Shown: positions 5,529 through 62,685, counted from the first letter of the whole stretch. The stretch is 62,765 bases of DNA, filler included, from Collodictyon triciliatum (GCA_043381765.1; 5 parts of 5 records of this genome joined end to end with filler, not necessarily neighbours in it), one strand, 5' to 3'. Made by a program: numbers and translations. The notes: generated by a model not told the origin, from the letters alone.

Positions 5529-8422
5529 ATAGATGGAACAAGATGAAAACGAATAATATGGCTGTGTATGTATATGAATAAATGTAACAGTGAAATCATC
5601 GATGTATGAAAACCTTCATCTTGTCGAATTCTTGCTTGATTTGAGCCCACAATCCAGCTATCGCAATAAATCTTGGCTAGGATATATGTAAACTTCATAT
5701 CTTTGTCGAAACATATTTATCATAAAGACAGGCATTATATCTTGATTGCTCTAGGTAAAATTAGCAAACTTGTTTACAAAAGAGCCGTTTTCATGTTATA
5801 TGTAACTATATTCTCTACTCATACTTTGTTTGATTTAGAAAGGAAAAAAGGGGAGAGTTATTACTCACAAAAACTTGGTCAGTAGGAACCGCAGACCGAG
5901 ATTTGACGATGGACTTCAACTCTGCAAGTCTTTGGGAATACTGTTCTTTGGCGTCCCATAACTGTGTCCGGATAGATGTTGCCTCTTGCTATAGCAATAG
6001 ATGATGGTTCGTAAAAAAAAAAAATTACTGATTTCATGTGTCCATTAAAACTTAACGGAAATAGATGATTTACTACTTGACCACAACTAGCTCATTTTAT
6101 TCGTATATTTTGTTTTAAAATTACATCATACATTCAAAGACATCAGGTATGAAAGGAATTGTCTTCGGTTGTTGAGTTCATCCTGCAGTTTTTGAATGGG
6201 TGCGCTGATTTGCATCTCGTTTCTGTGGACACTGGATATCACCTACACAAAACTTTTTGAGTGGAGAGAAATAAAGTGCGGTATGATTTTCCGGTAAATT
6301 CGAAAGGTTCCTTGGAATAAATTCTTTGGTTATTAAAAAAATAGAAATAATGTCAGTAATGTAACGAGAAGTGTGTTCATAGAGCATAATTTTAATCTTA
6401 ATGATTGAACAATATTTATACATGAAAAATATATGTCACACATATGGGATGAAGAAATCATGATAGGGTTTGGATGATAAAAACTATGAATTCAAATCCC
6501 AACTAACCGAAACGTAATCTTCCACTTGCTGCTCTACAATCTTTAAGAGGGCTTCAAGTCTTGTGCACACCTGCTCAGTCATTGAAGTGGCTTGCTTTGA
6601 AGCTTTCGGGTATGAAGATATTTTAATGTAGCAAACGAAAGGTTCATCTTGCTTTTTTCAATTATGATGGTGTTCAAGGATATTTTCTTTTTTTTTCTTT
6701 TTTCTTTTTTTCCTGGATTCACAATTTTTTTTTCCTTTATTCGATTCAAAGTGTAGCGAGATGGATTCACAATCTTACTATCATCGATTCCAGCGCCTCC
6801 TTGGCCAATATCCTTGTTGAAGAGTCGAATTCCAACCACAATATTTGTCAGTTCTGTAAGTTGTTGTTCTTTTTCTTTGTTTGTCATCTCCACAAAAGTA
6901 GGTAAATCTGACTGAGGGAAAACACTAGATTCAAGTGAAACGATGTGTTTCGTTAAAAAAAAATGAATATATCGAACAGTATTGTAGAAAAAAATTTTCA
7001 CAAGTAGAACAAGTTTGCATTAATCTGGTCAAAAATAGAGACCTGTAACACTAAATTCATTTAAAAATTGCAGTAAAAGCTCTTCATGATGAATGAAAAA
7101 AAAATATGACAGAAATAGGTCATGATTATTTTTTTTTATAAAAAAACCTCTCTAAGGCAGCAGCAGCTTCACGCACGACATCGATATCTGTGGGCGAACC
7201 CAACTCGCTTGTAACAAGCATAAATGTGATTATTTTCCGATACAATGCTGGACGGATATCCTCGGTTAGAAGAATAGAAAACAAAAGCAAGAGGATATTT
7301 TTACATTGTGTGATGTATCGATTTAAAACACAAAACGCAATCAATACACATTAAAATATCAAATAAATTATGTTAAAAATTCTTGATTTTTTGCAAATAT
7401 AAATATAGGACTTTTGCAATTGTGTTAGAAAAGTACCTTCTGATGTTCGCATTTTGGCCTCAAGAATTTCCTTCAACAGGGAGAAAATCTGCTTCGATTT
7501 TCGTTCCTTTTCATTTGCTTCAGCTTCCGTCTCTGTGATGTATGCAGAACCGTATGCCACTTGCATTTTGATTGTTGTCATTGCAGCAGAATTTTGGTCT
7601 TTCACCCGTGAGACACAAATCTATTGATTTTTTATTTAAAAATGAATAATCTCATAGAAGGATTAGCGTCATTTGGTAAATATTATCAGACAACATAAAA
7701 TTGCTGTTAGCATTGAACATAGGCATAATTAACAAAGGAAAATGGGTGCATACGTAGATAAATTGGTCAACGAATAAACATCTGGAAAAATATTTCAGGA
7801 AGGGAATCTGTTCGTTACCTGTACAAGTTTTTCCACTGCTGTTCCACTAAGCTCTTCATTCAGATTAAATTCCTTCCAATAAAACCGAATGAGTGAGTAG
7901 AAATCTCTGCTGAATTTTAGGTGTGTATGAGCTGGAAGTAAAAACAGAACAAGAAAAAGAACCAGGAACAAAACAAAACAATAAGAAAACATAACAAAAT
8001 AAAATATAACAAAATAAAACATAAGAAAACATAACAATAAAACATAAAATAAAACAAAACAAAACAAAACAATAAAAAAACATAAGAAAATACAAAACAA
8101 AACAAAAAAATAAAAAAATAAAACAAAACAATAAAAAAACAGAAAACAAAACAAAACAAAACAAAACAGAATAAAAAAAACAAAAAACATAAGAAAAACA
8201 AAATAAAACAAAACAAAACAAAACAAAACAAGATTGCTGGGAAACATCGAACAGAATATAACAAGATACAATATTGCCTATTATCAAAGAACAAACCGAA
8301 GATCTCTCCAGAACAACAGCCTTTAGCAGGAAAATGACCAAAGTCTCTTGGACGTGGATCCCATCGCGATCGCAACGCTCGATGATTTCGTTTACCATCT
8401 GAGACACAAGCTTCTCTGCCAT
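2675..8422 (-). CDS. CFAP206: Cilia- and flagella-associated protein 206 (multi-exon)
   Basis: Spliced exons give MAEKLVSQMVNEIIERC..., TIKMQVAYGS, LESVFPQSDLPTF...QLTELTNIVVGIRLFNKDIGQGGAGIDD, GYCPWTLIHRGGLALPGD, KAPELIHLL, TETPVHFVESYIEKDYTWNEWELRRRAIKLTNLRSKATHSTQTGKSHFRRENTTQ and a final exon IVRLTLDLTE*. These are characteristic CFAP206 motifs. Confidence 0.92.
6714..6773 (-). mobile_element. Short retroposed insertion, copy A (36 bp plus 12-bp TSD), CFAP206 intron
   Basis: TGGATTCACAAT at 6714-6725 and 6762-6773 flank the reverse complement of TCTCGCTACACTTTGAATCGAATAAAGGAAAAAAAA. Confidence 0.85.
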
Positions 8423-8675
8423 TTATATGCTCGTGTCTGTAATACTCTCAACTTGGACGTAACGCGTCTGAGGATAAGGTGGGAGTTAGAGACAAAAACA
8501 CGAAGGGCAGAGAGTGTAAGGCAGAGTGAAGAGTCGCTCGAAAGATTTGTGCATTTCTTTCTTTTTTTCTTTTTTTTCTTTCTTTTTTCTTTCTTTTTTC
8601 TTTCTTTTTTCTTTCTTTTTTCTTTCTTTTTTCTTTCTTTTTTCTTTCTTTTTTCTTTCTTTTTTCTTTCTTTTT

Positions 8676-8775
8676 NNNNNNNNNNNNNNNNNNNNNNNNN
8701 NNNNNNNNNNNNNNNNNNNTTAATTAATTAANNNNNNNNNNNNNNNNNNNNNNNNNNNNNNNNNNNNNNNNNNNN
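8676..8775. other. Artificial contig linker (N44-TTAATTAATTAA-N44)
   Basis: Six-frame stop spacer embedded in Ns; the same structure occurs four times. Confidence 0.95.
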
Positions 8776-9884
8776 CGAAAAGGTCACTTTACCACATCCC
8801 TTACAACACAGGTTATGCACCGAGACACACCCACGATCAAGACGCCAGCTGCCACCGACCCGTGAGTACAACAAACCACCAATAAGACGGAGCGAGCTCT
8901 TTGAAACAAATAAGATTAATAATAATAAAGGGGAATAAAAAAAAAAAGGCCTATCGGGCTCAAGCCATCAACCCACGGGTAGCAAGCTAATTATGAATAT
9001 AGTGTTCAGTTTTAGTTGCTCTGATTCATTCAACTGTTTCTTTTTCCCTATTCATTTACCTTTTCTTTCTTTCTTCATCTTTTTATCTTTTTTTTTTGCT
9101 TTTCTTTTTCTTTTCTTTTTTCTTTTTCTTTTTCTTTTTCTTTTATTTTTTCGGTCTCATTCAGCCTGTAAATGGATGTACTTCATAACAAAGGTTGTGA
9201 CGAACTTGGTTTTATCTCTTTCAAGGCACAACACTTTTTCTACAACGAAAGTGTACCAATATATATACCCATACATATACCATTTTATTGCACAGACAAC
9301 CATCGAATTTAATCTGGATTGACAAAAGCAAGAGCTTCGATGAATCTAAGAAAAAACCTGAATAATATAATAATATAATTAGTATAAACAATAAGGTTAA
9401 AAATATTCCAATAATCTCATTCTATTCCTGTAATCAATTTACATTTTTTTTCGTTTATGTAATATTAAATTCAAAAAGGACAAACAAGCCGTTGCCTTGG
9501 CCCAGACAGAACCCACCTTATAAACCTGCCACCAAACATACATTTCAAAAAAGCATACTATCCACACTTGCGGCAGTAATCACGTTGTTTGGGGCCGATA
9601 TGTTGACTTTCAGTCGCAATGGTTATACGGCTGTCCTTTCGAACTTGCCGAAACAGCTCTCAGGGTTTTGTCTCAAATCACTTGTAAAAAAAAAGTTGGT
9701 GTGTTTGTTTGCCACAATGCGTACATTTTGAGAGTCTCGGTGGATGCTTAATTTTACCTCAATTGATTTTGTGCAGTTGTTTTATATACATATTAAATTG
9801 ACTAATTGACTAATTGACTGAAGTTTTATTAAAATCGAAAACTCGGTAGTTTTCTAAAGGAAAAAATAAAACAAAGACTTTCAG

Positions 9885-11760
9885 ATGAAGAAGAGAAAAC
9901 GTCTTGAGTCTGAGAATATGAAGTCTGTAAAACCACACTATCCGAATGTGAAAACATCCCTAAAGTCGATTGTAAAGAATGCGGATGGCTATGACAAAAT
10001 CAACGACACGGTTTTATTGTGTCATAATTTGGTTACCGACAGTTATCTGTTTGCAAGATGTTACATATTGAAATCACAACAACTCCCAACAATCGATCAA
10101 AAGTGTTTTTTTGTACGCTTTAAAGACAGCCGGAATAGCTCCACAAGATAAACCCTCAAGTTAAAAAAAGAACACATATCAGTAAATACATGACTTTTTA
10201 TCTCAATGATTTTCGATTCCTTTTGTCTCGAGAAGAACGCTTTCCCTCGATTAGACTGACTCATCTATTACCGTAATTGGCGAAGCAAATGTTAACAGCT
10301 TATCATAATAACATTAAGGGACATTTTGTAAAGAGGTTACTGCGCTTTATAAATCAAACAGTTCCTAAAGATGAGAATATTACGGAAGCTATTAAAAAAA
10401 AAGGCAGACTTACGAAAGTTAAAAAGAAGTCATCTTCAAGAAACTCGAAATACCGGAACATTACAAAGGATGGGCTGCAATGCATTTGCATCATATCATT
10501 CCCAGCGATATTGTAAATGGTATCGAATATGACGTCAAACTCAATCCAAATAAGTACATTCCATATGTGATTTACATGAATCCCATTTTTTAGGACATTG
10601 GAACCAAACTGTTTCAACCAATCTCTATAAGAACTAACAATATACCATGTTATATTTTTCTAGATACTGCATGTTTGATAGGTATATTGGTATTATCTGG
10701 AAAGACGTTATTACCGAAGAATATACCAGGATGCATAGAGACCCTATGGGATAATTTCTTTGAAATGAAGAAGAGGGATTTTCATCAAAGAGACTACAAT
10801 TTTATATTCGTGATACAAACAGACGGCTTGGCGGTGTCATTATTGTTTGAAAAGAAAGCTATTTCAAATTCAAAATTCAAATATAACCAAAAAAACCCCA
10901 AGAATGTATTTATATAGATGAACTTTCCGAAGAGCATTTATCTTCATTAGCGAAAAAAAAATATAGTTAGAGTACACGCATGCAAGTTTATTTGGTTTAC
11001 ATGGTGGATGAGAAAGGTAAGAAATTACTTTACACGTCACACCAAACAAGACATGATAGCAAATCTCTTGAAAATCACAAAATACTCTTGCGCGAGAAAG
11101 AAAAGTGCAATCCTTTTCGGATATGCATGGTGACAGATTTACTAAATGCTGTTTCTTTTGGTCGCATGAATTTTGAAGAGAATCAGCGGTTTGAGACATC
11201 GAGAGTATCTTTAATCGATTTAGAGACAGAACTGAGTAAACATAATTCATGCACGGTCGATTATGAATAATTTCGGGAATATGTATCTATGAAATCAAGA
11301 TACCAGATAGAATTATCCAGGTTTTATAAACAAGTAACTTTTCGAAAGATGATAAGGAGACAGCATGTTAATACAAAAAGTAGAGAAGAATTCTTTATGG
11401 ACCGAATCGAAAAGACATTCGGCAAGGATGTTGTACTGGTGTATGAAGACTGGAGTAGAAAATCTCCGATGAAACCTTCTATGCCAACAATCGGAAGAGG
11501 ATTACGAAAAATACTATCCAAATGTTTTGAAACAGCTAGTGTAGATGAATTTAGAACCTCCAAGATGTGTCGCAACTACAAAAAGAACTGGAATATATGA
11601 AACCGAAAGGAAATACAAAAAAGGGTGTATAGATGTCTCATATGTAAAGAATGCAATCGCCCAGAAAGCAAACAAAGTGTATTCTTGACAAGGGACTTTA
11701 ACAGCGATAAAAATATACTCAAGTATTTTCAATCATTCAAAAAAAAAGCATACACCTTCC
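9885..11760 (+). pseudogene. Degenerate Fanzor1 (eukaryotic TnpB-like RNA-guided RuvC nuclease), frameshifted, intronless
   Basis: Broken ORFs over ~1.9 kb (~620 codons) read KTSLKSIV...INDTV...NLVTDSYLFARCYIL, YHNNIKGHFVKRLLRFIN, IQTDGLAVSLLF, YIDEL...NIVRVHACK (decayed RuvC-I), FGKDVVLVYEDWS...MPTIGRGLRKILSKCFETASVDEFRTSKMC (RuvC-II plus Zn finger) and VYRCLICKEC...TRDFNSDKNI (RuvC-III). Confidence 0.88.
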
Positions 11761-11774
11761 TCTAAAAAACAGGC

Positions 11775-11965
11775 TGTCGGGTCTTTCCTGGTAACCTTCA
11801 CCACTACACGATCTTTTGTGAAAAAAGTGGTGAGACCTTGGATACTAGCGGATCAGGTTTACCAAACTTTCGATTGGTATACCATCTCTAGTTGGAGAGT
11901 GTAATTAAAAGAAATCGTGACGGGTGATAACCGAGTTAATTTTTTAATGACTTTGCCAAAGTTGC
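11775..11965 (+). ncRNA. Candidate Fanzor omegaRNA scaffold / element right end
   Basis: It lies directly 3' of the Fanzor ORF. Stems: TCACCACT(11798-11805)/AGTGGTGA(11826-11833), ACTAG(11844-48)/CTAGT(11888-92) enclosing GGTTTACCAA/TTGGTATACC, a GGT-GATA-ACC hairpin (~11918-11938) and GACTTT/AAAGTT (~11949-11963). Confidence 0.55.
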
Positions 11966-12387
11966 AAGATGCACTGTTCAATCAAACGATATGAAGCGGC
12001 AAAAAAATAAAAAAAAATGATATAAACAAACAAAAAAAAAAAAACAACAAAAAACGATGAACTCAGCGGACGACATGCGATGCACAGAGGCCTCCTACAC
12101 GACCGTTTGTGGAAAATAAACCTGCAAAATATAATAAACAACAAAAAAAAAACCAGAAAAAAAAAAAACTTAACATAAAACTGCGGAATATCGCTCCAAA
12201 CCCAGGAAATACCGTGCGCAGTGCGGTGTGAAATATCCCGAAAGCTGCATATGATGTATTGGAGAATTGACTAAATGGTTCTAAAAGTATTGGCTTGATT
12301 TATTGACTATTAAAACAAAAAGGTGCGTTTAATAGCGCTAACACTTTCCTTTTCTCTTTCCCCTTTTGTTGCAGCAGGAAACGTGCG

Positions 12388-12439
12388 ATGAGCAAGGTTT
12401 GCTACCTTTGTTTGGTTTCAGATATTGCCCAACTAAATA

Positions 12440-12532
<93 letters not shown>

Positions 12533-23000: not shown

Positions 23001-26000
23001 TCTCTTCTGAGTTTTGTTTCTTGGCGTCATTAGCCCAAAAATTATCCTTTTGCTTCACGGTGGATGCATTCATTTGACTGGTATTGCCATCTTGCAGTGT
23101 ATTTGTGCTTGTACTAAGATTAGCGTTTGCTTGCTTCGGTGCAGGGTCTTGAGTTTCTGCTTGAGACGGAGACGACAGATTTATTTTTGCAGAAGTTTTC
23201 ACCCCAGACGAAGAAGTAAGTGATGATGCAGACCCTTCTTTAGCAACCAGAGGCACTTTTGTCGATGTGTTTCTGGAAGTCGCAACTTTTTTCCCAGCAG
23301 GCAAAGGTGCATCGTGCTCCTGTCCTTTGGCATCTTTTGTCTCTTTTGACAGTAAAGAGGGTGTTGTTCCATCCTTAGAATCAGAGGGATTCGAAGTAGA
23401 CGCAGTTGATTTGCTTTTAGAGTCATGATGGCTTAAGGGGCCCGAATGAATGACAGTGTCTGCAATTTCTTTGCGCCCTGAAGAATTGGAGGTCGTGGAT
23501 GGCGCAGTTTTCCCTGGGATGTAGCTCGTCGCAGAGTTGGAACTAACTGACTGACTATGTGAGGGAGGTTGTGTTGGACCCTGAGCCAAAGAGGAAGTAG
23601 AGGTCCCACTTGTTTGTGGGGTGGTTGATTCATTTTTGGGAGGTGAGTGGGATTTCACTCCCGAGGCCTTCTCCACTTTGGTAAGGTTTGAGTTTGGTTG
23701 TGAAACACTCGGGGTTGAGGGTGCTGCAGGGGTAGGTTTCTTTGAGGCACTGGAAGTGACGCGAGATGAGGTCGAATTTTCCGTCACTTGCTTGGGTTTT
23801 GCGGCATCTGGCAAAGGTCTTTCAGGGGCAGGTGTAGGGGCTTTGGAATCAGTCGCAGTATTTTGTGTGCTTGAATTCTGCTTTTTTGTCGATTGATTTC
23901 CAGATAATAGATTGCCCGTTGATGAGACCGTTGTAGCTTGAGTGGTATTAGGAGGTGTTGTGTATGATGGATTGGGAGGATAAGCTTCGTTCTTTTCAAT
24001 CTTATTCTTCCGTTCATATTCGTTCTTTTCAGCATCACGAGTTGAGTTGCTCCTGTCGCTTGATGTGTTTCCGGTAGATCCAGCGGAATTAGTTTGGGAT
24101 GAGGTTTTGTGTGGCTGATTCTGTATTTGAGGTTGTGTCTCAACTACAGATTGGTGGTTGCTTCTCTTTTTTGACGGTTGAGAGACAGGATGAGGGCTTG
24201 ATTGTTTCAGAACATCTGGTGCGTCGGGGTTTGGTTTGTTTGCTGAAACCTTTCCGCCATCTGGTATGGAGATATGGGCTTCTGGAGTTTTCTTTGAGTG
24301 TTGATGGCTTGTTACCGCTGCGGCGAGAATCTGTGATTGATGGGTAGCTGAGGTATTCGATGCGTGGGTCTGTGATTTTTGGAGTTCTGATGGTTGGTTC
24401 GTCCCTGTACCTTTTTCGGATGAGGAAGGTTTCTTCGGATGGTCTTCGTGTTTTATTGGCGAGGAGTCAGCAACTTCATCTGGTGGGGATACATTTTGAG
24501 AAGTTTGTTGAAGTTGAGGTGTTTCACTTGGTGGTGGGGGGCTGGGGTCCGCCGAAGTGGACTTACGGTTAACCTTGTAGCTGTTTGTTGAGCTCAAATG
24601 GTATGGGTACGAAAATTCTCCAATTAAGTTATCATGATAGACCCAAGGATTTTCTTTCTTTGTCATCCTCCACAAGCAAACGAATATCGATACACTTATA
24701 GCGATGAATAATCTGCGCAGAGCCTCTCCAAATGGAGTAGAAGGTATCCTGTCTGCACAATCCGCCAATAGGTCGTAGGGTAGCGTGGATACAATGGGAA
24801 TCACGGCCAAAACCTGATAATAGCGCAGATGATCAATGCCGGAGAAATCATCATATTCAATGTCTTCCTTAAATATTGGTGACCAAAAAAATGCGCGGTC
24901 TGATAGAATAAAATAGTGGGAATAATAATAAAACCTTGGATTGTGGGGAAATAATTATCAAATCCTTTTCAATTAAAGAAGAGTGAAAGTCAGGTGAGAA
25001 TGTCAATGACAGCGTGGTATGTTCTCCAGGGTGGAGGGTTATTTGGGTACAGTTTAAGACTTCGAATCCGTATGCCCCGCTAGATAAGTGAAATATGTAA
25101 AGATTAAAATGTCTGAAAATACTGAGATGGGACCAAGAACGTTTGTTTTTCTAATACATTACCATCCTTTTCCATCAATTTTTGCTGTTAGGTTTTGAAG
25201 AGGTAATTTCCCTGTGTTTCGAATTTGGACAGACTGCTTTTGGGTGATAATATTGCCGCATCCTTCACCTAATTTGAAAGAGTGTGTATACGTCAGTTCA
25301 GTCTTAGATGTCCTGTTTTCCGTTATTTTTTTTTCTTCCTTTATTTGTGTGCGGTACACAACTAAAGATACACTCACCTGAAAGCAAAAATTCTTCAGTG
25401 AAATTGAAACGAATCGATGATATAGTAGTGTTATCACCAAGAGAGAGAAATTCTAGGATTCCTTCACCGCCCTACAGGTTTTAAAGAAAAAGAGAAATAA
25501 GATAACAATAAAGTAGCCATCGTAACTGGATGGATATGATTTCAAATGAAGCTGTCGCTTGATTGATAACTAGGTATAAGCGAAGAATAAACAAATAAAT
25601 AATTGGAAATATCTGTGGAAACAAACTTCGCCACGAAGCTCAACAATTTCCAAGATGGTCAGGTTATTTTTTAAGTATAAAACAGCGTGATGAGTTTGAT
25701 TATCCGTTGGCTGGAAATATATAGGACCGAGTAGCGTATATTCTTGGGGCATTAGCACAACGCCCTATTTTTCAATTACAGATTTTAGGATTGGCCAAAA
25801 AGAAGAGTTGTCAAATCAATCACGACATGGAGAAATGTTATTTTCTCCTTCGTATCTAATACTAACCTCAGAGGCTCTTGGTGACATCGAAAAATAGTCC
25901 GACAACGGAGAGAAATGAAGCGGGAAAGTTTGGTTGGCACAGGTTGAATTCGGCGGAAAAGGTAGTATCTGCACGTGAATAGGGACATCGGACGGGTTTG

Positions 26001-26911
26001 ATATGGGTATGTATCTCTCCTCAACTGAACCAACCTGTAAAAATGTGTGTCGATGAGCCGGAATGTACTTCTTGGTTGGTATTCCAGTAGAATATACATG
26101 AAAGGCATATCAACGTACTTGTATTAGGCCGTAGTTGAATGTTGAATATGATGCATTGATGATTGAAGGTTTCATCAAAGATGCGTGGACGAACATTCTA
26201 AACCTATTTAATGGGACCAAGAGTGAAAAGATTATGAAAAGTCACATTCATATTTGTAAATGAGAAACTAAAATGAAAACTTGTTTATGTGTCTTGCATC
26301 CATATTCTTTAAAATTACATTATATTCGCGTCAGTGTGAACGGTGATATTTGCCACAATAAATGTTTCCCCAGAAACTTGGATGGAATCCCAGATTTTAT
26401 CTCTACGTTTAAGAGCCTACAAAAGAATGAATAAATTATGGAAAAGATTGAGCAGGTGATTACATAATAACCGTGATAGGGATGGATGAAAGTAGCTTTT
26501 TGCAATAAAAAGAAGAAAATGGTTGATATCTTACTTGATAGTCCCTCTTGGACAAGGGCTCTCCGACCTTGCTTAAGCTATTTTGTGCCGAGTAAGATGG
26601 TTCAATCATATAGTTTTTCTCAATTGACCCTGTAAACATTGATATTGAATTGTTATTTATTTGCTGGATAGAATGTTATATTCTCTTGGATGAATTTTTA
26701 TTCGACGAATTTTATTCCAACACCGCAAAATTATAACACATATGAGTGAGAAACCTCTAGACGGATCAAACTTCACATATCCAACCATAGCAGGGGCATT
26801 TGGCTCTATGATGTCGTTAGTAATCATCGGGATGAATCTTGGGTCTGATGAAATTATTGATGTAATAGTCACAGGCACCCTATAGTTTTCATTATTATTA
26901 TTATTTACAAA

Positions 26912-26942
<31 letters not shown>

Positions 26943-29900
26943 TCAAGCCTAGAATCTAACAGCTTCTTTGCTTGATTTAGTATATACATATACCACTGTG
27001 TTCACCTACAACTTTTTGACATTTGGATATTGAAAATTCAAATAATTTTTCACACAATAGTGAACATCATACGGTAGAGAATTCGATCCTTCCATTGGTG
27101 ATCTCAAAATACGCCCAGGGAATGATGGGCTGAAGCGAACCAGGTTTGGCTTTATGGACACACTACCGCTTAAGCCAAAGTATCTGACAGTGAACACAGA
27201 CTTCTCGAAGTTTGTGTTCATCGCAAACCTCAGTCCAAAGGACCCCTCTCTACATGATCAGTATTCAAAATGAACTGTCTGATATATCCTGGTGGCATAC
27301 AAATCGTACTTGCAATTATGAGGTCACTGGATAAGAACGAAGATTTACTTTGCAATAAGTTGAATCTCTATGTATTCGCTTCGGCCAGGAACTATCGACA
27401 AGTTCTCTAGTCTAAGGTAGTTCAATATGAATTTGTTTGTTTTCCTTTTTTTTAAAAAAATAATAATAATAATGTGTGTATGTGTATGGTTAAGGCGATA
27501 TACATATGAGCGCATAGTTACCGAGTGCAAAAATATGTTATAATATTATATAATTACTCATTCGAGAAGGTAATCTTATCATCATGGCTGTTGTTGTAAT
27601 CTATCCGATTTTCATAAAATCCTTTTGCCCTGAATTATTTTCGCAAATAAGGATGCTGTTTAATTATTTTGAAGATATTTTCTGAATAATTTCAATCAAA
27701 AGATTGGCATTCCAGTGGGAAGGCGAGAATCAAAAATTTAAAAAGAGTAGAATTAAACATATGTAATTTCATTGACCTTAGTGTCATATGTGGGCTAAGG
27801 GACTTCATTGATGTAATTGTAACTGGTCTGGGATTTGGATTCGTAATTTTGATCAAGTGGACATGGGGCTCCTTGGCGGTTATAGGGCCGACATCAATCA
27901 GGCTCCCCTATGAAATTTAATTAACACAAGTTTTTGATACCGTTTTCTAAAAGCAGAACATAAAGTATCATAACAATCGTTCCATCGTGTACCCTAGATT
28001 CTTGGCCGCTTACAGACACAGACGATAGAGACAGCGAACCAGGATAAAAGGTTGTGGATAATTCAAAGGTGGTTATATTGGTCACCACCACAAGAGATAC
28101 TGGTAATAAAACAAATGGAGATTCAACCCGAACGAGCAACTTAAATTGATTCTATTAAGAAAATAAAGGAATAATACGGTGTTTAGATTACTATTGAATA
28201 AATATTAAAAAGAGGAAAATATTCACAACAGTTCATTAAAAAAAAAAACAATTAATTTTCATAGGATATAATTCCTAAAGTGAAGAATGCTTTCATAAAA
28301 TTTTTGACTCACACAAATATCGCCAGGGTGTAATAAGATTTCGCTTGAAGGGCCAACCACATTCACAGTAGAGTTTATCGAGGAAACATCGAGAATAACT
28401 AAAGGGTGCTTGAAAGTGTGACTGATGATGGTCAACCTTTGGAAAGTAGTTTCCTGACCTCCAGCGGCGCTTATGATAGGGTCGGGTACTTGAACATCAA
28501 GTTTCCTAATATTAAGAAGCATTTGGTCAATGGCACAGTCTCACCAGAGTGTATTCAGATTTTTCTTCAGAAAGCAAAGATAAATATAAACGTAGGTCAT
28601 TGTCAATTGGGTTTATATCAGTATGAAGTGATTCGATTTCATATAAGAGCCAAACTTTTTCAACTGAAAGTTTTACATAAAATTAGATATGGGATTGACA
28701 AGTGTAGTCCACAAACCCATGAACAATCTTTCCACGATAGAACACTTCAATTTTGGATTTTGGGAGAGACGTGTCATTTGTTTTGAGTACAACCTGGTAT
28801 AACAAAGATAAAAAAAAATAATCATCCAACAGAAAATTATGTGTATATGAGCTTTACTGAATATATAGGATTCAACTACAGCTAAATGCTGTATTTATTT
28901 ATCTTTTAAAAAAATTATACCCGGCCATTGAATTCTCCTTCTGTTTTCCCTTGCATCACAACTTGTAGAACCTCTACTTCCTAGTAACAATATAATATAT
29001 ATATATATATTTGTTCAGGACTAGGCACAGCTACAAAAGAATTTACATATTTGAGATATTAAAATTGTTTACCTCTCCGGGTAGTAATGTAGCTAAATTA
29101 ATGTTTTGAAGATAAATGGAACCAGACGGAGGAGAAAGGAATGTCTCCTTGATTTGAATAGGCTATACATGACAAAAGAAAATCTGTTAACTAAAAAGAA
29201 AAAATAATACATACATTGATGACATGCCCACTTTCTTTTTCTTAGAGCATGGTATTAGTAAAATTGATGTTTGTCAACATACTTTGATTCCTGTATTCAT
29301 CAAGTAGAGAGGCTCTATTCTCTTTCCTTCGGGATTGGTGAGAGGTGCAAAACTGATCTCTTCGGGTCGTTTTATAATTGATCCTTAATGTTTAGCGGAT
29401 TAGTATGCTTAGTCTTCACCGCAAACACATAGACATAGATATAGACATAGATATAGACATAGATATAGACATAGATATAGACATAGATATAGACATAGAT
29501 ATAGACATAGATATAGACATAGATATAGACATAGACAGTAAATCCCGAGAAAATTTTAAACATAGAAATACACATATTCTACCACGAAGAGCCAACTGAT
29601 AGTCTAGACATACCTCGAGTGACCATAAAATCAACAGGTATTGTCATTTTGTGACGATTAGTGACTATATGAATATGTGCAGTATGTTTCCCGAGGGTTG
29701 TGGGGATTATGTCAACTTGGATAACGTATCGGGTAGAGTGCGGCGCGATTGTCTGTTAATTTATTTATTATTAAAAAGAAAAGAAAAGAAAATTGGTAAT
29801 AAATAAATAAGTTTGTCGGATTACACTTTCAAATTCCTCTTGTCATTTTATTACCCTTTTAGGTATAATTGTATACAGAAATGGTCGTTGTGTGGGTGTT

Positions 29901-31745
29901 TATGTCATACCCAAGTCTTCGGCTCGTGACTTTTTGGAGGACCATGTTGAATTAGAGAAAGTTGCACGTACGGGTCTGCTGAGGTAATATCCTTAACCTA
30001 GATAGTAGGGCGTAGTTGTTCTCGTATGAGTAGATGAAGCATAGGGGTCTATACACTCAATCATTTATAAAGAATATTTTGGGGTAAATGTTAAAAGAAA
30101 AAAAAACGCAATATATTGAAAATTCCATTTTGTGAAATGACCTGAAGATCGGTGTCGTAAGGGTTGTGAAGCGAAAGATACGTAGAAAACTTAGACCCCA
30201 GTATCACATTCAGATTAAGCAAAGGCGTTACTCGATATGGGTTGGCAATCCCATGAGCACGGACCTATCACAAGTTAATTGAGATAATACAATACTAGAC
30301 ACTTTCCATATTGTTATTATAAGAAAATTCTTAAATAGTCTGAGTGAATGGAAACAATAAATAAAAAAAAATTTAAATCGAATAAAAGAAAAAGAAGATA
30401 GGTTAAATTTCATAACACGTCTTTGTGTATAATTGAAAATTAAGATATACTTTAAACTCTAGGACTCCATAATTAGTACGGATGAAACCTTTCGAATCAC
30501 TTTGTCCCAAAACTTGTGGCAAGTGTATGATTTGGATGATAATATGTCCACGTGGTTGAATCATCTATATAAAGCGTAAACATTGAGATATAATTTGAAT
30601 TAATGGAATGATAATGGACTGAGGAAGAAACCCGTTTCAAAATACAATCATCGTATGTGAGAAGAAGAAAATCACCCTATCAAGCACTGTCGCATTGAAA
30701 TGGTTTGAGTCAAATGAAACATCTTTAAGGTTCACAGGGCGGTCTGATGAATTGATAATCTCAAGGGACTCTCCGACGGGAATAAATATCGGTCTGTCAT
30801 GACATAGAAGTAGAACATGGAGAAAGATATGTTCCTGAGACCGTGTGAATTTTGAAAAGCTCTTGATGCTTACAGAAATGAGGTAAAATTGTTATAAAAA
30901 AGGATAGAGGCAAACCTCTCCTTGAAATCCAAAACAGTAGGGGATAATTTGATTGTGTTCGGTGCCAATGGTAAGCTACTCTGATCTTCAGAGATCCTTT
31001 GATTTTGTCCACGTGTGAGTGGCAGATATTAATAAAGAAAAATCATTGCTACTTTGAATCGAATAAAGGAAAAAAAATCATTACTACTAGATGTTTTTAT
31101 GGTTTCACATACCATTTCTTCTGGGTGACATAGGATTGAAGAATTACAAGATAAAAAATAAGATTAGAATGTAAGGAAATACGTGTATTTCTGGTATTTT
31201 TATTCGAGATAAAAATTTTAGTGTTAATTTTTCTGCTCCGTGCTTCAAACAGATCAACCTTGATAATGGCAGGAAGAAATAGGGACAGATTTCATTCATA
31301 TGATAAGGATTAGTGGCCGTTCAGAACAGGTTTACCTCAAATGTTTGTGGAGCTTCATTTCCAACTTTCACTTCGATGGTTTCAGTATCACCTGCTTGGA
31401 TGGATGTAAGGAAGTAAGTGTTGGTGTCAACTTTTCAAGCTTCTTTCCCTTCCTTTCCATTTTTTTTTTTTTTTTGCAAACAAAGGGCCAGAAATATTAT
31501 ACGCTGGAAATAGAGAGGCCATATCATAATTAAATTGAGCTGCTGCGAACGGATAATGAGGGTTTCTTGTTGAAATATTAGTTTTGTGGCAGTAGTGAAC
31601 CTTGTGTTTGTTTGCCACGTTCTTGATCATTGTTTTTCTTGGATGTGCAGGCTCCAGTGTGCAAAGAATTAAACGCCACGAAAAAAAGCGCGAGGAAACA
31701 AAAGACTTTCCGTCCCTTTGTTTCTTTTCTTGAGTTCTTTTCCAT
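20008..31745 (-). CDS. TMEM131: TMEM131 (RW1)-like transmembrane protein: signal peptide, many small Ig-like-domain exons, TM helix, then a ~1500-aa low-complexity tail
   Basis: IKLSPTVLDFKERPIFIP, NPYRVTPL...LSLHNPYDTDLQ, SIKPNLVRFSPSFPGR, LYLKNNLTILEIVELRGEGGEG, IRNTGKLPL and LAVIPIVSTLPYDLLADC...LFIAISVSIFVCLW match the TMEM131 layout. The final exons are the 907-aa and 647-aa ORFs. The first exons are less certain. Confidence 0.82.
22131..22192 (+). mobile_element. Short retroposed insertion, copy C (23 bp plus TSD spanning a TMEM131 splice donor)
   Basis: ATGATACC-T9-AGTT (22131-22151) and ATGATACC-T6-AGTT (22175-22192) flank CTTTGAATCGAATAAAGGAAAAA. Confidence 0.85.
29428..29537. repeat. 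(ATAGACATAGAT)n 12-mer tandem repeat in a TMEM131 intron
   Basis: Directly visible; it produces the spurious poly-DI / SISM ORFs. Confidence 0.9.
31038..31088 (+). mobile_element. Short retroposed insertion, copy D (19 bp plus 16-bp TSD, 1 mismatch), TMEM131 intron
   Basis: AAAAATCATTGCTACT and AAAAATCATTACTACT flank TTGAATCGAATAAAGGAAA. Confidence 0.82.
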
Positions 31746-32701
31746 CTTGCTTTGATTAAGTTTCCTTGGAAGGTTTGTAACTCCGCTCTATACTTCCTTG
31801 AAATTTAGAGAGATGAGAAATAAAATCAAAGGGGTTGGAGTTTGGCCTTATTTTAGTTAATACAATCAAGCTAGATGAAAATCAGGGAGAGTATACAAAG
31901 TCTCATATTAAGGTAATAGGTCAAAAGAAAGATAGAAAAAGTGAGTTCTCTAAGGTTAAGAGAGCAGGTCGGGGACGTTGTTGTTTTCGCCCGGAAACGA
32001 GCATATGGAAACCTTCAGAAAAAGCATAATTGTTGGTTATGGCGAAAACATGACTGGATAAGCTGAAAAGCAGGAAGTGCGCCAGTTTCTTATTGCACTC
32101 GTTGTTTTTGTTTTCTTCGTGTTGTCTTTTCATATTTTTTTTTTGGTATCTTGTTTCTTCTCGTGCCGTTCTTTTTGTGTGGCTGAGTGCTACGGTCTTT
32201 TTTTTCTTTTTTTTCTTTTTTTTTCTTTTTGCTATAGGTTGGTTTGGTTTGGTTTTAGTTGCGAGAATGAGAATGAGTTAACCAGCTTCAAAAAGAAAGT
32301 GTGGTAAGCAGGGCGATAAAATAGTGACGAAACAGTATTAATACGTGGAGTGTGCGTTGCAACAGAGCAGGACACGAATAGCCAGCCCGCACGACGAGAT
32401 TAAGTCGGATCCACTAATCCACTCACCAGTAAATCGAGTTTGTTCAGAAAGAGACAATGGACGAAAAATAAAGAATATTCTATTTAATTTCTAAGAAATC
32501 TTACAAATGTGGATATTTCTAATCCGGTCGTTCGGTGGTCAATTTTAGATGGTCGTGGGACATCCGTGTTGGTGTTTTTGTTGACATCCACGCTTTCAAT
32601 CCCACGTATTCATAACATACCTGGATTATAGATATTAAAAGTATTTGCGAGTGTTGATGACAAAAGCACACGTCAGATATCTCAATTGCATTACAAACGC
32701 A

Positions 32702-32734
32702 TTTCTTTCCTTTATATGATTCAAAGTGCAGCGA
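32702..32734 (-). mobile_element. Diverged intergenic copy F of the same element (no clear TSD)
   Basis: TTTCCTTTATATGATTCAAAGTGCAGCGA matches copy A (TTTCCTTTATTCGATTCAAAGTGTAGCGA) at 26 of 29 positions. Confidence 0.7.
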
Positions 32735-32966
32735 AGTTATTCCATACAAAGGGGCGAGATAGGTGTGCATGGGAGAGAGCAAACGCGAGTAGGAGAAGAC
32801 ACTACGTGGAGGCGAATATCAAGAAATCAGTGATAGCGAGTTGGTCAGGTGCGCGACCCAACTGGTTGATTGGTTGCGTGGGTAGCAGGGGTTGGATATG
32901 CTGTGGGAGATATCTTACGACACATTCCCACATCTCTCTTCGCTTGCGGTCAGAGTAGCGAAGAAT

Positions 32967-33066
32967 NNNNNNNNNNNNNNNNNNNNNNNNNNNNNNNNNN
33001 NNNNNNNNNNTTAATTAATTAANNNNNNNNNNNNNNNNNNNNNNNNNNNNNNNNNNNNNNNNNNNN
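32967..33066. other. Artificial contig linker
   Basis: N44-TTAATTAATTAA-N44. Confidence 0.95.
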
Positions 33067-33327
33067 AACAACAACAAACAACAACAACAAAAAACAACAA
33101 CAAAAAACAACAAAAAACAACACCTAAAAACAACACCAAAAAACAACAACAAAAAAACACAACAAAAAAACAACACCTAAAAACAACACCAAAAAAAAAC
33201 AAAAAAAAAACAAAAAAAAAAAAAAAAAAAAAAAAAAGAATCCCATAACCCAACAGCATACAGGACAATAACCTGTCTACTTCCCCACCTAACAAAAAAA
33301 AAAGGGGAAAAAAAAACAACAGAAAAG

Positions 33328-34500
33328 ATGCTTCTCAACGTGAAGCACTTCAAGACGCTGCTGCTTGTGTGCAGCGGAGCCGCGCTTGTCTTTCTCCTCT
33401 TCTACGTGGAGTTCTTTTCGTCGGAGGACTGGATAGTGTACGAGGCCCACTGCGACGCAGAGACCGAGACAGACCAGAGAAACACATACACAAGCACAGG
33501 GAGGCAGCGACCGGGCCCGTTCGAATCAGCATTCGAATCAGCAGCCGAGAAGGCAGCCGCGGGAGGCGGAGGCGGAGGCGGAGGCGGAGGCGGAGGAAGC
33601 CAACCCGCAAAGCCGATCAGCAACACAACAATGACGTACCACTTTGATCTGTACCGCCTGCGCGTGGAAGGCTGCTGCTGCCCGCCGGTGGGCAACCGCA
33701 CGCTCCTGCCGCAGTGCTGCTCGGACTGCCAGCGCCAAGTACCGTACCCGGAGTGCTCCGACGAGCTCTGCGGCGTCCTGGGCACGCTGGGGATCCTCAC
33801 GGTGGTGGCGGCGTTCTGCGTGGTCCTCTTTGGCCTGGTCTCGCTGCTCCTGACCTTTGCGCGCCTGCGCCTCATCCACCAGAGGGACATCTTCTTCCCG
33901 GTGCGCGGCCTCTTCTGGGGGCTGGCTGCCGCCCTCAGCTGCGCCGTCTGGTTTGCCTGGCAGTACACCGGCGACCGGCGCGCAAAGCGCTATCTGGACG
34001 CCTGCCACTTCCCCGGCGCGTACACCGTCCGCGACAGCTTCCACTCCTCCCAGAACAGCAGCGTCCTCATCTTTGCCTTCTGCTTCTCTTTCTTCATGGC
34101 CCTCACAAACCAGCTCTTTGCCACCCGCCCAAAGTACGCCCTCATCGAGATGCAGGACCACTCCGACTCCAACCCGTCAGTGTCTGTCTTCATCCCTTTA
34201 TCTGTTAATCTATCAGACCCTTGATCTATCTCCGGGTTATGATGAGAAGCGTGTGTTTCTTTCTTTTTTCTTCTTTTTTTGTGAAAGTGTCCACCGGAAC
34301 AACATTGGGTGTTCGCCCTCTTCTTGTTGTGTGGTTGTGTGGAGTCATCGTCCTTTGTATCGTGACTCTGATTGAATAATAACAGTAGGTCGGATTTGAA
34401 TGCAAGGCTCATCGTCAGCGTCGATGTCAGAAGCACTCGGGATATAGACGGAGAGCATGTGGAGTTTGCTGGAGAAGACGTCGATTCGAAAGGGGGTTAA
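33328..34500 (+). CDS. Four-TM membrane protein with Cys-rich first loop (claudin/amastin-like topology)
   Basis: GC-rich 298-aa ORF with four hydrophobic segments, W after TM1 and a Cys cluster. A probable intron at 34176-34388 gives the tail ...NPSDLNARLIVSVDVRS...DSKGG*; the unspliced stop is at 34224. Confidence 0.7.
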
Positions 34501-35106
34501 TCAGCAGATATCGCTCCCCCACCCAAAAAAACTTTCCTCCAGACAGAAAACATCGATTTGGATGATTATTTTTATCATTTTTTCTTCTATTTTCCTCAAA
34601 TCTTTGGTACACAATGGATACTTTTCACATACACGCGATAAGAAGGCAATCATATATCCAATATATTTTTTTCTTAGAAAAAATTTAATTGACGAAGCCA
34701 AAGCCTTTGATTATGCAAAATTTCTTATAGACACAAAGATATAATCCACCTTCGGATTTTTTTTTTCCATCTCTCTCTCTCTCTCTCCCCACCCCTTTCT
34801 TTTTCCTTCTCCACTCACGCAATTTTTATCCCATTAGTACTTCAAATCAATTTTATTCAAAAAATAAAATAAAATGATGGGGTATAAGTCAACGGCAAAG
34901 TGCGCGATTTATTTTACTCAAGTTATACTTTTAATGAAGAAAAGGAAATGGATGTGGAAAAGCGATTTAGTACATAAAAGATAAAAATCGACAGAGTAAT
35001 ACGAATTTGAAATTAGGTATATTTTTTTTCCCAGAATAATAAACTGCCCCTTTCTACAAACCACATACTGGGATGAACATAAGCATTAAGGATTTTCTAG
35101 TGGATA

Positions 35107-38100
35107 TCAAGTCAATGGGTAAAGGTCTCGGAATTTAAAGTCTGGCGAATGGACAGACTTTATCCTATCTGAAGATATTTTTAAGGCAAGAATCCCGGTC
35201 TGATTCCTTTCACCAACTTCGAACCATCGAAGGGATGCAATATTACGAGACATCGAGCCGTGTGCTAGCCAGAGTGATTTCTGGTGCGATTTTTGTAGGA
35301 GCACATCACATCCATGCTGAAGTAACAAATACACTTCCTTTTCATTCCTCCATTTTGTTGAGAGCCCAGTTCTTGTGAAACAGCTTGGCTTTAAATCTCG
35401 TTCTGTGAATTATAAAATACAATATTTAAATAATTGATATGGCTTTTCTAAATACTCATTCACATAATCCATTTTAATGACACATATAAACCGTTCATTT
35501 TCTTATGTCACTGAATGGAAATTCAAAGACTTTTGAAAAGTAAATAGAATAAAATATCTGCCACCTTTCTCGGCATCCTTCGTTAATCTTTGGACTGAAA
35601 ATGGACGATTCCACTCTGTGGATTGTATCAGTTCTGTTCCATTGGGATACTTTGAATGTAACACAGTGAATATGTCCCTGTGCATAGCCATGTAATTCCA
35701 CCACCTGCTACCATGCTTTTGCTCTTCTGAAGCTATGGAAAACCACTCGACCGTATATGTATTTGGCTTGTCAACGCGATGAAGAAATCCAAAACCGCCT
35801 CGCCCGGTCTCTTGGATGAAATCCTGGAACAGATATGTCCGAAGTCCAATGTGATAAATGACGATATTTGATGACTGCATCTAATATTGAAAAAAAATAT
35901 TTTAAGAATAATCAAATTATTATATAGTCACAATCATAATAATTGATAGATTCATCCAAGTTGTAAAATTCCAAAGTGATTTTTTTTTTTGGATAGTAAA
36001 TCGGAACTGGAGGGGCGATAGTGTATTAACTTGAAGGCATTTCTATTATTCCTTTCAAAACTCGAGGAGTTATTGTGATCATGTGTTCTCATGTTGGATA
36101 AAATAAAGAAACTTGATTTCCCCAGAAAGATCCTCCAGAAGTTTTCCATGTTCCCTCAAAAGAAGCAACAGCTGCTGGGATATCATCAGTCATTTTGGAC
36201 TTTAAGTTATGTCTGGATAATCGAAGTCCTATCATATATATTTTTTTCGGGGAATATATTAATTGGTGGCTGTAGCATAAAGTTGCACTGTTGTACCCAG
36301 CAAAACTACCAATTTACACACAAACTAAGGTAAAAATAAATAAATAAACAAGATATGTTAATCAACCTGTAAAATTAGAACTTATGAGCGCCTGTGAATC
36401 TTTTAGCCATAACCCTTCACTATGTAATGGATGGGATATGTTAAATTGATGGTCGTCCGTAAATCGACCAAAAACAACATCCTTTCTTATCCCTAGAATC
36501 TTCCTTTTTAAATTGTAATGTTCGCCAAGAGCATAGAATCCCTTGATAGCGGTGCTTGAAGAGTAACCCGATTCCATGAAATAAATTGCGTCGGGTGATA
36601 TTTCCTTCGAAGAATTAGGTACATGACATTTTTATTCAACGTCCTCCATTGGTAAATAAATGAGAATCATATAGTCATAATATGGCTCTACTAAAGGATA
36701 TATAATTCGAATAATGCACGGCTACTTCGAAGTGAGTTTAAACTTTATAAATATGTAGTGTGAAGTTATACGAAAACTGTGAAAAAAAAACCTCTTTTTT
36801 TTCAGAAAACTTCAGACCAATCACACTTGCACCAAACTCCTGTATTAGTAAGGATGCTTCGCCCAACACCCAGACCCCATCAAGGGGTATGTCATACTCC
36901 AAAGTACCTTATTTCATATTCAATCGTAACTCAACTGCTCATATTTGAAAACGCTTCCTAGAATGTGTTATAATAATTCATTCTATCAAAATAACAATAA
37001 AAATATATACAAACCTGGTGGATTTAGTACACTTCGATAAAAAATGGGCATTTTGACATCACAGAAAATCTTTTTCAAGAGATTGTTGTTTGGCTCAGAG
37101 ACCAACTTGAAACCACAATTATATTCTTTTCTCCTGGTTAAAAATGCTATCCTGACATGAACATATTGTTTCGATATTTTCCCCTCAGCCAGATGCAACT
37201 CATCCTTGATATTCCCCATCCATGCAATTCGGTTCTTGAATTGTCGAACGTACAAATGCTGATTACTCTCCTTACTAGACCATATTCCACTCAACTAAAA
37301 TGCGTACAATTACTTTGAATCGAATAAAGGAGAGAAATGCGCACAATTAACTGGATAAAAGATAGAGGAAAATAGCATGATCAATCGAATTATACTCAAA
37401 AAATGCTTATAATCAAATAATAAGAACCATTTTTTCATTTGAAACATCCAGGGAATCTGTAGTATTGCTCCAGAATGACCGATAGTGAGTCCAAAATTTA
37501 TCGATGCATTTGTAAAAAAATTCGTATCTTTTCTTTTCTCTATGGGATTTCTTCTGCAACCTTAATTATTTTTAATATCTTGAGTTTTTCAATTATTCTC
37601 TCCCATCATAGATTTGTATGTCTTGATTATCTACTCTCTTCAAATTACTAAGTGGTATTAGGAAAGTAATGATGCTAACCCATACAGGAATATGATGATT
37701 TATTTTCAACAGCAAACATGAGCGATATATCCAAACCTCGGGTTATTTCGTGATAAAGGATGTGGAATATCTACGAGCCAGGGCTTTTCGGCCCCCTTGT
37801 CTATGGGACTGACAAAAAACATATGTGCATTATATATGCGCTGGTAATTCAACTTGTAGGTGTTAAGAATATCATGTGCAGCTTCACGAGGGAGGGTCTA
37901 TATATCTTTGTTTTAGAAAAGCGATGCCAAATGGCTTGGAGAGCATTTCATCAGCTGATTGATTGATGTAGGTTAAAAGAAAAAGAAAAGAAAGAGACCA
38001 TTTCACTTTCGAATTGAAGTCAAACGCCACATTTCAGTTAGTGCGTATGGCGTCACTTACATGAACTGATAATGGAGAACGCCAGTATTCATAAAGAAAT

Positions 38101-39375: not shown

Positions 39376-40065
39376 CCTATCTCTCTCCTTTTCTCCTTTT
39401 CTCTCTCTCCCTCGGCCGGCCGCTTTCTGCGCTGAACCTAACCCTGCACTTACTCCACACAAACACCTCGGCAGCCTACACAACACGGCCTCGTTTTGCG
39501 GCAGCGAACCAGACGGAATGCTACAGAACAGCGACGATTACAACCCAACCCTTGAAGGCACCGTGACAGAAGCGAATCTGTCTTTTTCACGGCCCGTTTG
39601 ACCGGCTCGCAATCTTCAGAGCTGCATGGGGGAACTATCTTCGGTCGCTCCAAACCACAAACAATTGGAAATACCACCACAGCCGAAAGGCGCACAAGAG
39701 GAGGCGAGCGAGGAAAGACGGAAAGAGCCGGTTTCCAAATGTATAATTTCTGAATACGGAATATATACATATTTGAATCAATTTCTTGCAGTATATGCTT
39801 GGCCGTAGTGCAAACACACTATAATATTCAGTATTATATTTTTATATGTATCAATTTTGAAAACAGCCGCAACGGACAGTAACGGCGCCGTGTGCAATGT
39901 GGCGTAAGCATGCTATACCAGTCGCTTTTTCCACACCAAACACACACGACCAAACATATTCGCCCGCTGCTTCAAAGAACCCGCCACTTCTCCTGTCAAT
40001 CCTCTTCACACCCTCCGCTCCGCTCCACGCCGCTCACTCAGACTCACCCACAAGCATACACCTGC

Positions 40066-43000: not shown

Positions 43001-44072
43001 GTCCACTGCCTTGGAAAATCTCGCCATGGTTGTCTCGGAGACGGGTGACCATATACGGTCCTACGAACTTTATAAGCAGTCGTTGCAGATTCGAATGGAC
43101 AAGTATGGGGATTCACATCCAGACGTAGCAAACGTCTTCAATAATCTGGCATTGTTACTGAGTCGCCAGAAAAATTATGCACATGCTGTCGAGTATTACC
43201 AAAAGAGCTTGTTAATCATGGAGTCTGTATATGGAAAGGAACACGTTAATGTAGCCACCATACAAAGCAACATGGCGTCCATCTACCTCAAGACCGACAA
43301 GTTGGAGGATGCCTTGAAACTGTTTCATTCCGCTCACAAAATCCTGTCGAAGGCATTTGGAGAGGAAAATCCCGATGTCGGCACTATTTTGGACAATACT
43401 GGGGCTGTATATCGTAAACTCGGCCGCTTGAATGAGGCATTAGAATACCACAAGAGGGCAATAGGAATCTTTGAGCGGACCTTTGGTGGTGAGTACCACG
43501 GACTGTCCACCCCACTTTGCAATCTAGCGTTGTTGATGAAAGATGTCAAAAACTACTCGAAGGCTGAAGAGCTCTACCTCCGGGCCTTGCACATCGACCA
43601 ACTCAAGTACGGAATGGAACATGAGAACGTGGGGTCCATCCTGTCCAACCTTGGGGCGCTGCAGATGGCCCAGAGTAAGTATGCCGAGGCCCTTGAATAC
43701 TTCCGGCGGTCGTACGGCATTCGCCAGCGACTCCAATTCACAGACACTTCTGGGATGGTCGGGTGCATGATGAACATGGCAGCCATGCAAGCTCGCCTGC
43801 AGAGAAATGCCGACGCCATTGGGGTGTATACATCCGTGATACCAAAGATACAGGCGCTGGGAGCCACCTTTGACCGGGATTTGGCTGTGGTTTACCACAA
43901 TCTCGGGATTCTCTATTTCAATGAGCAGAAGGATTCCGATGCTCTTCTATGGTTCCAAAAGGCGCTAGACCTGGAGAAAGCAGTATTCGGAGAGGAGAGC
44001 GAGGAGGTGAAAGAAACAGTGGAATACATCGACGAACTCACCGACCCCGCCCCTGATGAGGAAGAGGGTTGA
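40066..44072 (+). CDS. DUF4062 + P-loop NTPase (NACHT-like) + TPR protein, nephrocystin-3-like architecture; exons 40066-41007 and 41184-44072
   Basis: N-terminal MGCGQTK acylation motif; IRVFLSSTFKDMMEERNAL...VDLRWG...LGDRYGWIP...SVTEMEI (DUF4062); Walker A GPPGMGKS; Walker B VLFIDSVNQL; about ten 42-aa kinesin-light-chain-type TPRs (HPDVANVFNNLA). Confidence 0.9.
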
Positions 44073-49709: not shown

Positions 49710-49809
49710 NNNNNNNNNNNNNNNNNNNNNNNNNNNNNNNNNNNNNNNNNNNNTTAATTAATTAANNNNNNNNNNNNNNNNNNNNNNNNNNNNNNNNNNN
49801 NNNNNNNNN
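49710..49809. other. Artificial contig linker
   Basis: N44-TTAATTAATTAA-N44. Confidence 0.95.
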
Positions 49810-53272: not shown

Positions 53273-53372
53273 NNNNNNNNNNNNNNNNNNNNNNNNNNNN
53301 NNNNNNNNNNNNNNNNTTAATTAATTAANNNNNNNNNNNNNNNNNNNNNNNNNNNNNNNNNNNNNNNNNNNN
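53273..53372. other. Artificial contig linker truncating the adenylyl cyclase
   Basis: N44-TTAATTAATTAA-N44. Confidence 0.95.

Positions 53373-61775: not shown

Positions 61776-62685
<910 letters not shown>

Follow-up and report, generated by a model that had tools for sequence, protein, structure and literature searches.

The window analysed here, a stretch of 62,765 nt from Collodictyon triciliatum (GCA_043381765.1), contains five insertions with a total insert length of only 19-38 bp, which we consider highly likely to be extremely 5′-truncated copies of a poly(A)-tailed retrotransposon of the L1-like, endonuclease type without long terminal repeats (non-LTR), i.e. of a long interspersed nuclear element (LINE). 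Since only the last 16-27 nt of a 3′ untranslated region (3′ UTR) of about 93 nt are present in the inserts, they would represent extremely 5′-truncated products of target-primed reverse transcription (TPRT). What the sequence and the RNA contigs show directly is that the inserts are identical to the 3′ end of an element bearing open reading frame 2 (ORF2), that duplications, tails and junction features accompany them, and that copies 2 and 3 lie in introns (copy numbers as in Table 1).

The five copies share a 16-mer, TTGAATCGAATAAAGG, and exact matches to it were found at all five sites where the initial annotation had placed short copies of the motif. If two mismatches are tolerated, two more sites appear, at 30373(+) and 32709(-). 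In 100 dinucleotide-preserving shuffles of the window, searched with the same tolerance of up to two mismatches, the mean number of matches was 0.14, and none of the 100 shuffles attained the seven matches seen in the window. The mismatched site at 30373-30388 was rejected as a family copy; it has no flanking repeat (a score of 6 in the flank alignment described below, which equals the null level) and is probably a chance match. The site at 32709(-) likewise scores 6 in this test.

All five exact copies are enclosed by direct repeats of 12-21 bp, which are unrelated in sequence from site to site. When the 45 bp upstream of each copy were locally aligned with the 45 bp downstream, five of five copies scored 12-17, whereas a score of at least 12 was reached at just 3.5% of 5000 random window positions, which bears out the earlier claim of five copies lying between unrelated repeats of this length (as for all insertion statistics given here, n = 5 from one window). 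The high-scoring random positions are presumably tandem repeats for the most part, from the many microsatellites of the window. The two duplications of copy 3 differ in the length of a T-run only. In the order of the copies, the duplications start with ATTG, AACA, ATGA, AAAA and AAAT, so that the first base is A in every case. With A at the start of every duplication, the terminal base of the nicked strand would be T, which would permit pairing with a poly(A) tail.

The 3′ end of the family is constant and is followed by a tail, whereas its 5′ end is variable, with 16-27 templated nt in the short copies and at least 265 nt in a longer copy. A fixed 3′ end, a varying 5′ end and duplications that start with A, as the initial annotation had described them, were indeed seen in all five short copies. 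The features looked for in a LINE of the apurinic/apyrimidinic endonuclease (APE) type include an A-rich tail at a fixed 3′ end together with variable 5′ truncation, and target-site duplications of variable length at T/A-rich nick sites; the former were found here, and the latter in five of five copies of this small sample.

A source for the inserts was identified outside the window. A scan of metagenome contigs with the motif followed by AAA gave 20 loci, one of which, L006, is a true relative of the family, while the other 19, including the four identical loci L005, L007, L013 and L018, are unrelated matches and were discarded. L006 is 1157 bp long, of which 1055 bp end in ...CTCGCTACACTTTGAATCGAATAAAGG(A)10; its reverse complement ends in ...CCTCGCTACACTTTGAATCGAATAAAGG followed by A10 and has the same 27-nt end as copy 1. 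The five short inserts are 100% identical to L006 over alignments of 20-36 bp (36/36 for copy 1). On its minus strand, positions 549-1157 of L006 match the Pfam domain zf-RVT (PF13966) at 32.4 bits (cut-off: 27.5), upstream of the 3′ UTR of about 93 nt, in an open reading frame (ORF) that, compared with its intact relative P0017, is disrupted by a single frameshift. The same domain is matched by P0017, P0003, P0004 and P0006. The C-terminal zinc-binding (CCHC) domain of ORF2 and the short 3′ UTR of an APE-type LINE were thus both found. Judged by this sequence similarity, the repeated 16-mer is the extreme 3′ end of the 3′ UTR of a putative L1-like element, whose ORF is predicted to end in zf-RVT.

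An HMMER search against 1.84 billion representative proteins recovered 14 relatives of the L006 ORF, which fall into two groups. The first consists of close C-terminal fragments (59-98% identity), and the second of four proteins of 1226-1275 aa with about 25-30% identity, each of which carries both Exo_endo_phos and RVT_1; three of these four full-length relatives also match zf-RVT, below its cut-off. The RVT_1-bearing relatives P0011-P0014 are colinear with the close family over about 425 residues, and the close-family fragments P0019 and P0017 are colinear with residues 772-1196 of P0011, whose best solved relative is human LINE-1 ORF2p (E = 3.4e-57). Searches with a protein word index returned no longer relatives of the L006 ORF or of P0019, which is weak evidence. 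The parent element expected 5′ of the motif was recovered in part: its ORF2 end with zf-RVT was found in L006, while the reverse transcriptase (RT) and APE domains were seen in distant relatives only.

One longer and older copy of the element is located in the window as well. The initial annotation had listed 32702-32734(-) as a diverged short copy, but this segment is really just the end of a longer copy (at least 265 bp), which can be aligned to L006 and comprises the end of ORF2 and the 3′ UTR (Table 1). Its core reads TTGAATCATATAAAGG, its tail is degenerate and its 5′ side is lost at a contig break and linker (32967); a tblastn search aligned residues 196-244 of P0004 to 32966-32820. Short copies therefore account for five of the six family copies in the 63-kb window. 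The LINE 3′ region is covered by many RNA contigs, 18-19 of which stack at one position of the 32702-32966 copy, so that the family must be multi-copy, transcribed or both.

At their 5′ junctions, copies 5 and 7 share the microhomology ACT with the duplication, whereas copy 2 contains filler and copy 1 an extra base. The source of the 19-nt filler of copy 2 was searched for in the window and in L006, which yielded nothing informative, the sole match being one 10-mer. The identification of the motif as the end of a LINE 3′ UTR, the zf-RVT ORF, the L1-type relatives and the microhomology or filler at the 5′ junctions all support TPRT by an APE-type non-LTR retrotransposon, which had been proposed at the outset.

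Table 1 Positions of the insertions and of further features in the window. Duplications are given as upstream and downstream copy relative to the insert; LINE end, templated 3′ UTR end of the element.
Feature	Position	Strand	Exact 16-mer match	Target-site duplications	Insert or other details
Micro-insertion 1	6714-6773	-	6734-6749	6762-6773 and 6714-6725, 12/12 bp, ATTGTGAATCCA	Extra T 6761; LINE end 6734-6760 (27 nt); A8 tail 6726-6733
Micro-insertion 2	14296-14367	+	14332-14347	14296-14312 and 14351-14367, 17/17 bp, AACAATCATATTTTCTT	Filler 14313-14331 (19 nt); LINE end 14332-14347 (16 nt); A3 tail
Micro-insertion 3	22131-22192	+	22154-22169	22131-22151 and 22175-22192, 21 vs 18 bp, ATGATACC-T(9 vs 6)-AGTT	LINE end 22152-22169 (18 nt); A5 tail 22170-22174; no other junction feature
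Micro-insertion 5	31038-31088	+	31054-31069	31038-31053 and 31073-31088, 16 bp, 1 mismatch	LINE end of 16-19 nt (31051/31054-31069); 3-nt ACT microhomology with duplication; A3 tail
Micro-insertion 7	37298-37352	+	37315-37330	37298-37314 and 37335-37352, 17 vs 18 bp, 1 mismatch, 1 indel	LINE end of 16-19 nt (37312/37315-37330); 3-nt ACT microhomology with duplication; degenerate AGAG tail 37331-37334
Longer, older LINE copy	32702-32966	-			ORF2 end and 3′ UTR; 90.8% identity to L006 over 271 bp
Host intron of copy 3	22014-22181	-			GT..AG; 168 nt skipped (CT..AC on the plus strand) by one RNA contig each in X1 and X2
Synthetic spacers	8676-8775, 32967-33066, 49710-49809, 53273-53372				Four identical N44-TTAATTAATTAA-N44
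Gap	12533-12809				N277

Next, we considered the position of the insertions relative to genes. Copy 3 is intronic, since RNA contigs of two runs skip the segment 22014-22181, and it lies antisense to its host gene. Its duplication includes the 5′ splice site AAG/GTATCAT, so that this site is now present twice; the RNA contigs splice at the upstream one, and the 42-nt segment between the doubled sites keeps the frame and contains no stop. The downstream site, 42 nt on, is a potential alternative donor, the use of which would add 14 residues. Copy 2 has the sense orientation and lies within an intron of a gene for a short-chain dehydrogenase, some 24 nt past the 5′ splice site, as indicated by the conserved exons on both sides (it lies between the YAASKAG-encoding exon and the next one). 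Copy 1 is on the same strand as its host gene and begins about 5 nt after a GTAAG that resembles a 5′ splice site; judging from this sequence just upstream, it is likely intronic. With copies 1 and 2 in sense and copy 3 in antisense orientation, both orientations relative to host genes are represented, as had been stated. The accompanying statement that all five copies are intronic holds for copy 3 from spliced RNA and for copy 2 from the exons, and is likely for copy 1, but is without support for copies 5 and 7: the ORF pieces around these two gave no Pfam match above cut-off, and there is no RNA cover at their positions. A weak match to the TMEM131L Ig-like domain (18.6 bits vs a cut-off of 27.8) lies about 5 kb away from their region, and parts of 25946-30774 are likewise without RNA cover. 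The hosts with intron support are short, at about 170-225 bp. As to empty sites, one X4 DNA contig contains the filled site of copy 3, while the RNA contigs are spliced across it. Metagenome runs with a small share were given no weight as to habitat.

For the origin of the inserts, the enzymology, the cause of the early termination and the selective filter are what we infer. The endonuclease of the element would nick the target and free a 3′ end terminating in T; by annealing to the poly(A) tail of the LINE transcript, this end would prime reverse transcription. Synthesis would stop or switch after 16-27 nt of the 3′ UTR, and the short cDNA would then be connected with the other end of the target through microhomology (two copies, with ACT) or a filler (one copy, with 19 nt). 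A staggered second nick would finally yield the target-site duplication of 12-21 bp. Among the three sub-options offered initially, i.e. extreme abortive LINE reverse transcription, length-purging in short introns and retroposition of a tiny RNA, the first is the best supported.

Within the short introns of this gene-dense stretch, it is likely that only tiny insertions are tolerated, and the longer ones are probably found where repeat-rich DNA interrupts the assembly, as is the case for the 32702-32966 copy. That the window contains five micro-copies but only one long copy, at an assembly break, is probably due to selection in short introns against insertions of greater length. Length-purging is plausible as a filter on survival, but not as a later deletion, given that intact duplications abut the truncated ends.

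Several observations weigh against extreme truncation during TPRT. Four of the five 5′ ends lie within 4 nt of one another (16-19 nt), which is tighter than expected for random truncation and may reflect either a pause site or a discrete RNA. The predicted fold of the 3′ UTR has no significant structure that might stall the enzyme (z = -0.43), so that the idea of a hairpin blocking the enzyme finds no support. The fragments recovered from the close family itself are all C-terminal and include no RT or endonuclease domain; the APE and RT architecture therefore rests on relatives that are about 25-30% identical. An ORF for RT and endonuclease is also absent from the window, where only the end of ORF2 (32820-32966) is present. 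Moreover, the sample comprises just five copies from a single window, and no empty allele was seen in read contigs over 19800-32960, where the cover is too thin to mean absence.

Because four 5′ ends cluster in this way, a tailed 3′ fragment as template remains worth considering. According to this unlikely alternative, a discrete small RNA was retrocopied by the LINE machinery, so that the inserts would not result from aborted copying of a full-length RNA. The small RNA would be either a LINE 3′ fragment, left by decay or by slicing in the RNA interference (RNAi) or Piwi-interacting RNA (piRNA) pathway, or a tail-only parasite that is transcribed on its own. Besides the 4-nt window in which four of the five inserts begin, no duplication-flanked copy with fewer than 16 templated nt was found in the window, no stalling hairpin is predicted, and the LINE 3′ region is heavily represented in RNA contigs, all of which would fit such a template. 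However, one insert carries 27 nt and another one 16 nt plus 19 nt of foreign filler, so that a single 5′ end does not exist, the junction microhomology leaves the exact 5′ ends ambiguous, and 16-27 nt are too short for a promoter-bearing unit.

Alternatively, ordinary longer 5′-truncated insertions might have been cut down later by deletion in short introns, which we regard as highly improbable. This explanation would agree with the short hosts among those with intron support and with the single long copy being located at a contig break, outside recognised exon structure. However, in five of five copies both duplications are intact and the upstream one abuts the truncated 5′ end, and a deletion would have needed to stop exactly at the boundary between element and duplication five times. 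A further alternative, in which the motif is not an insertion but either arose as a repeat by chance or serves as a conserved element of introns in regulation or polyadenylation, might be suggested by the AATAAA within it and by the proximity of two or three copies to 5′ splice sites. It can practically be dismissed, because the flanking duplications are mutually unrelated, the copies occur in both orientations relative to host genes, the inserts show full identity to the 3′ terminus of an element with ORF2, and the number of motif matches expected by chance is 0.14.

Returning to truncated LINE copies, we also considered that discrete micro-insertions of 16-27 nt could be the main product of the element and not the far end of a smooth truncation curve, which is a tentative and rather doubtful proposition. 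In such a case, the enzyme may jump templates very early, or 3′ fragments of sliced or decayed RNA may stay tailed and serve as templates. If this were true, there would be thousands of insertions below 40 bp, mostly intronic and invisible to repeat annotation, some of which would double splice sites, as copy 3 did, while others would plant AATAAA signals.

A scan of the window for short-range direct repeats and for A-tailed insertions with duplications revealed no second micro-insertion family; the short-range direct repeats were otherwise microsatellites and a few 11-13-mers without tails, and the remaining matches were 10-13-mers located kilobases apart, at chance expectation. Neither tRNA genes nor Rfam families were detected in the window. 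The scans of two further collections, genome_contigs (6 loci) and viral_contigs (1 locus), gave loci that are all unrelated to the LINE. In five of the six genome_contigs loci (L021-L024 and L026), the 19-mer ACTTTGAATCGAATAAAGG is part of an apparently conserved bacterial coding stretch with a near-identical 140-nt context in all five. Their hosts are Crocinitomicaceae, Lishizhenia and other Bacteroidota, and the matches are coincidental, which shows why scans of large collections with short motifs need context checks.

With regard to the structure of the window, the four synthetic spacers (Table 1) contain a 12-mer, which appears to give stops in all six frames. With contigs linked by these spacers, the window is a concatenated pseudo-scaffold, in which sequences on the two sides of a spacer do not necessarily adjoin in the genome. 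Long microsatellites are unusually dense in the window and are located at 12440-12532, 18924-19027, 19690-19771, 29429-29535, 59846-60073 and 61856-61955, with (TAT)n, (GGTAA)n, (GA)n, a repeat of the 12-mer ATAGACATAGAT, (GAA)n and (TTA)n as units, and several contig ends terminate in low-complexity runs. A very large Ser/Thr/Pro/Gly-rich low-complexity coding region at 20008-24954(-) consists of two exons and is transcribed and spliced in two RNA runs; it gave no Pfam match. At 39883-41022(+), a DUF4062 ORF lies beside an ORF at 41184-44069(+) with AAA/NACHT-like, TPR_12/TPR_10 and Nephrocystin-3 TPR matches, and by domain content the pair (39883-44069) looks like one nephrocystin-3-like gene.

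The insertions show that a recognisable retrotransposon family can leave insertions of 19-38 bp, well under the range of repeat finders. If the genome behaves like the window, a considerable fraction of retrotransposition events is being overlooked in genomes that are compact and rich in introns. Micro-insertions can also act on genes, as seen from the doubled 5′ splice site of copy 3 and from the sense copies, which bring AATAAA into introns. Since the mechanism is textbook TPRT, the interest of the family lies in its length distribution and not in a new principle.

Compared with known systems, the inserts share with 5′-truncated LINE-1 copies a fixed 3′ end with poly(A) tail, variable target-site duplications (12-21 bp and starting with A in this case), microhomology or untemplated filler at the 5′ junctions and a C-terminal zinc-binding domain in ORF2, and the distant full-length relatives of the family carry APE and RT with human L1 ORF2p as best match. 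According to a study on human L1, 76 of 99 engineered insertions were 5′ truncated, with microhomology of at least 2 bp at truncated junctions, the 5′ junctions of such insertions show microhomology or untemplated bases, the target is TT/AAAA, and the median insertion length is 712 bp (PMC11702581). In contrast, the templated length here is 16-27 nt in five of six copies, about 1/30 of that median (PMC11702581). The family is also only about 25-30% identical to its nearest full-length relatives in the C-terminal region, and no name was found for it.

A further likeness is provided by L1-endonuclease-dependent insertions in human disease genes that consist of little beyond a poly(A) or poly(T) tail and are read as severely truncated retroelement copies; in NF1 exon 25, a poly(T) tract 'may represent a severely truncated' Alu, L1 or processed pseudogene (PMC3219598). 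Unlike the copies studied here, which make up the majority in the window, these tail-only insertions are rare single events to which no source can be assigned. The inserts of the window can be assigned to one family because their tag of 16-27 nt is recognisable. Like short interspersed nuclear elements (SINEs) and other tail-sharing retroposons, they carry the 3′ tail of a partner LINE, whose machinery mobilises them. SINEs begin at a defined 5′ end with a head that stems from tRNA, 5S or 7SL RNA and includes a promoter. The inserts, in contrast, are headless, consisting of a LINE tail of 16-27 nt only, they have no tRNA or Rfam match and their 5′ ends vary between copies, so that an assignment as SINE, with an RNA polymerase III head and a defined 5′ end, was rejected. 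A full-text literature search, which was not exhaustive, found no LINE family described as making mainly insertions below 30 nt. While the extreme length profile needs the genome for confirmation, we conclude that the element is a new L1-like family with a known mechanism and unusually short insertions.

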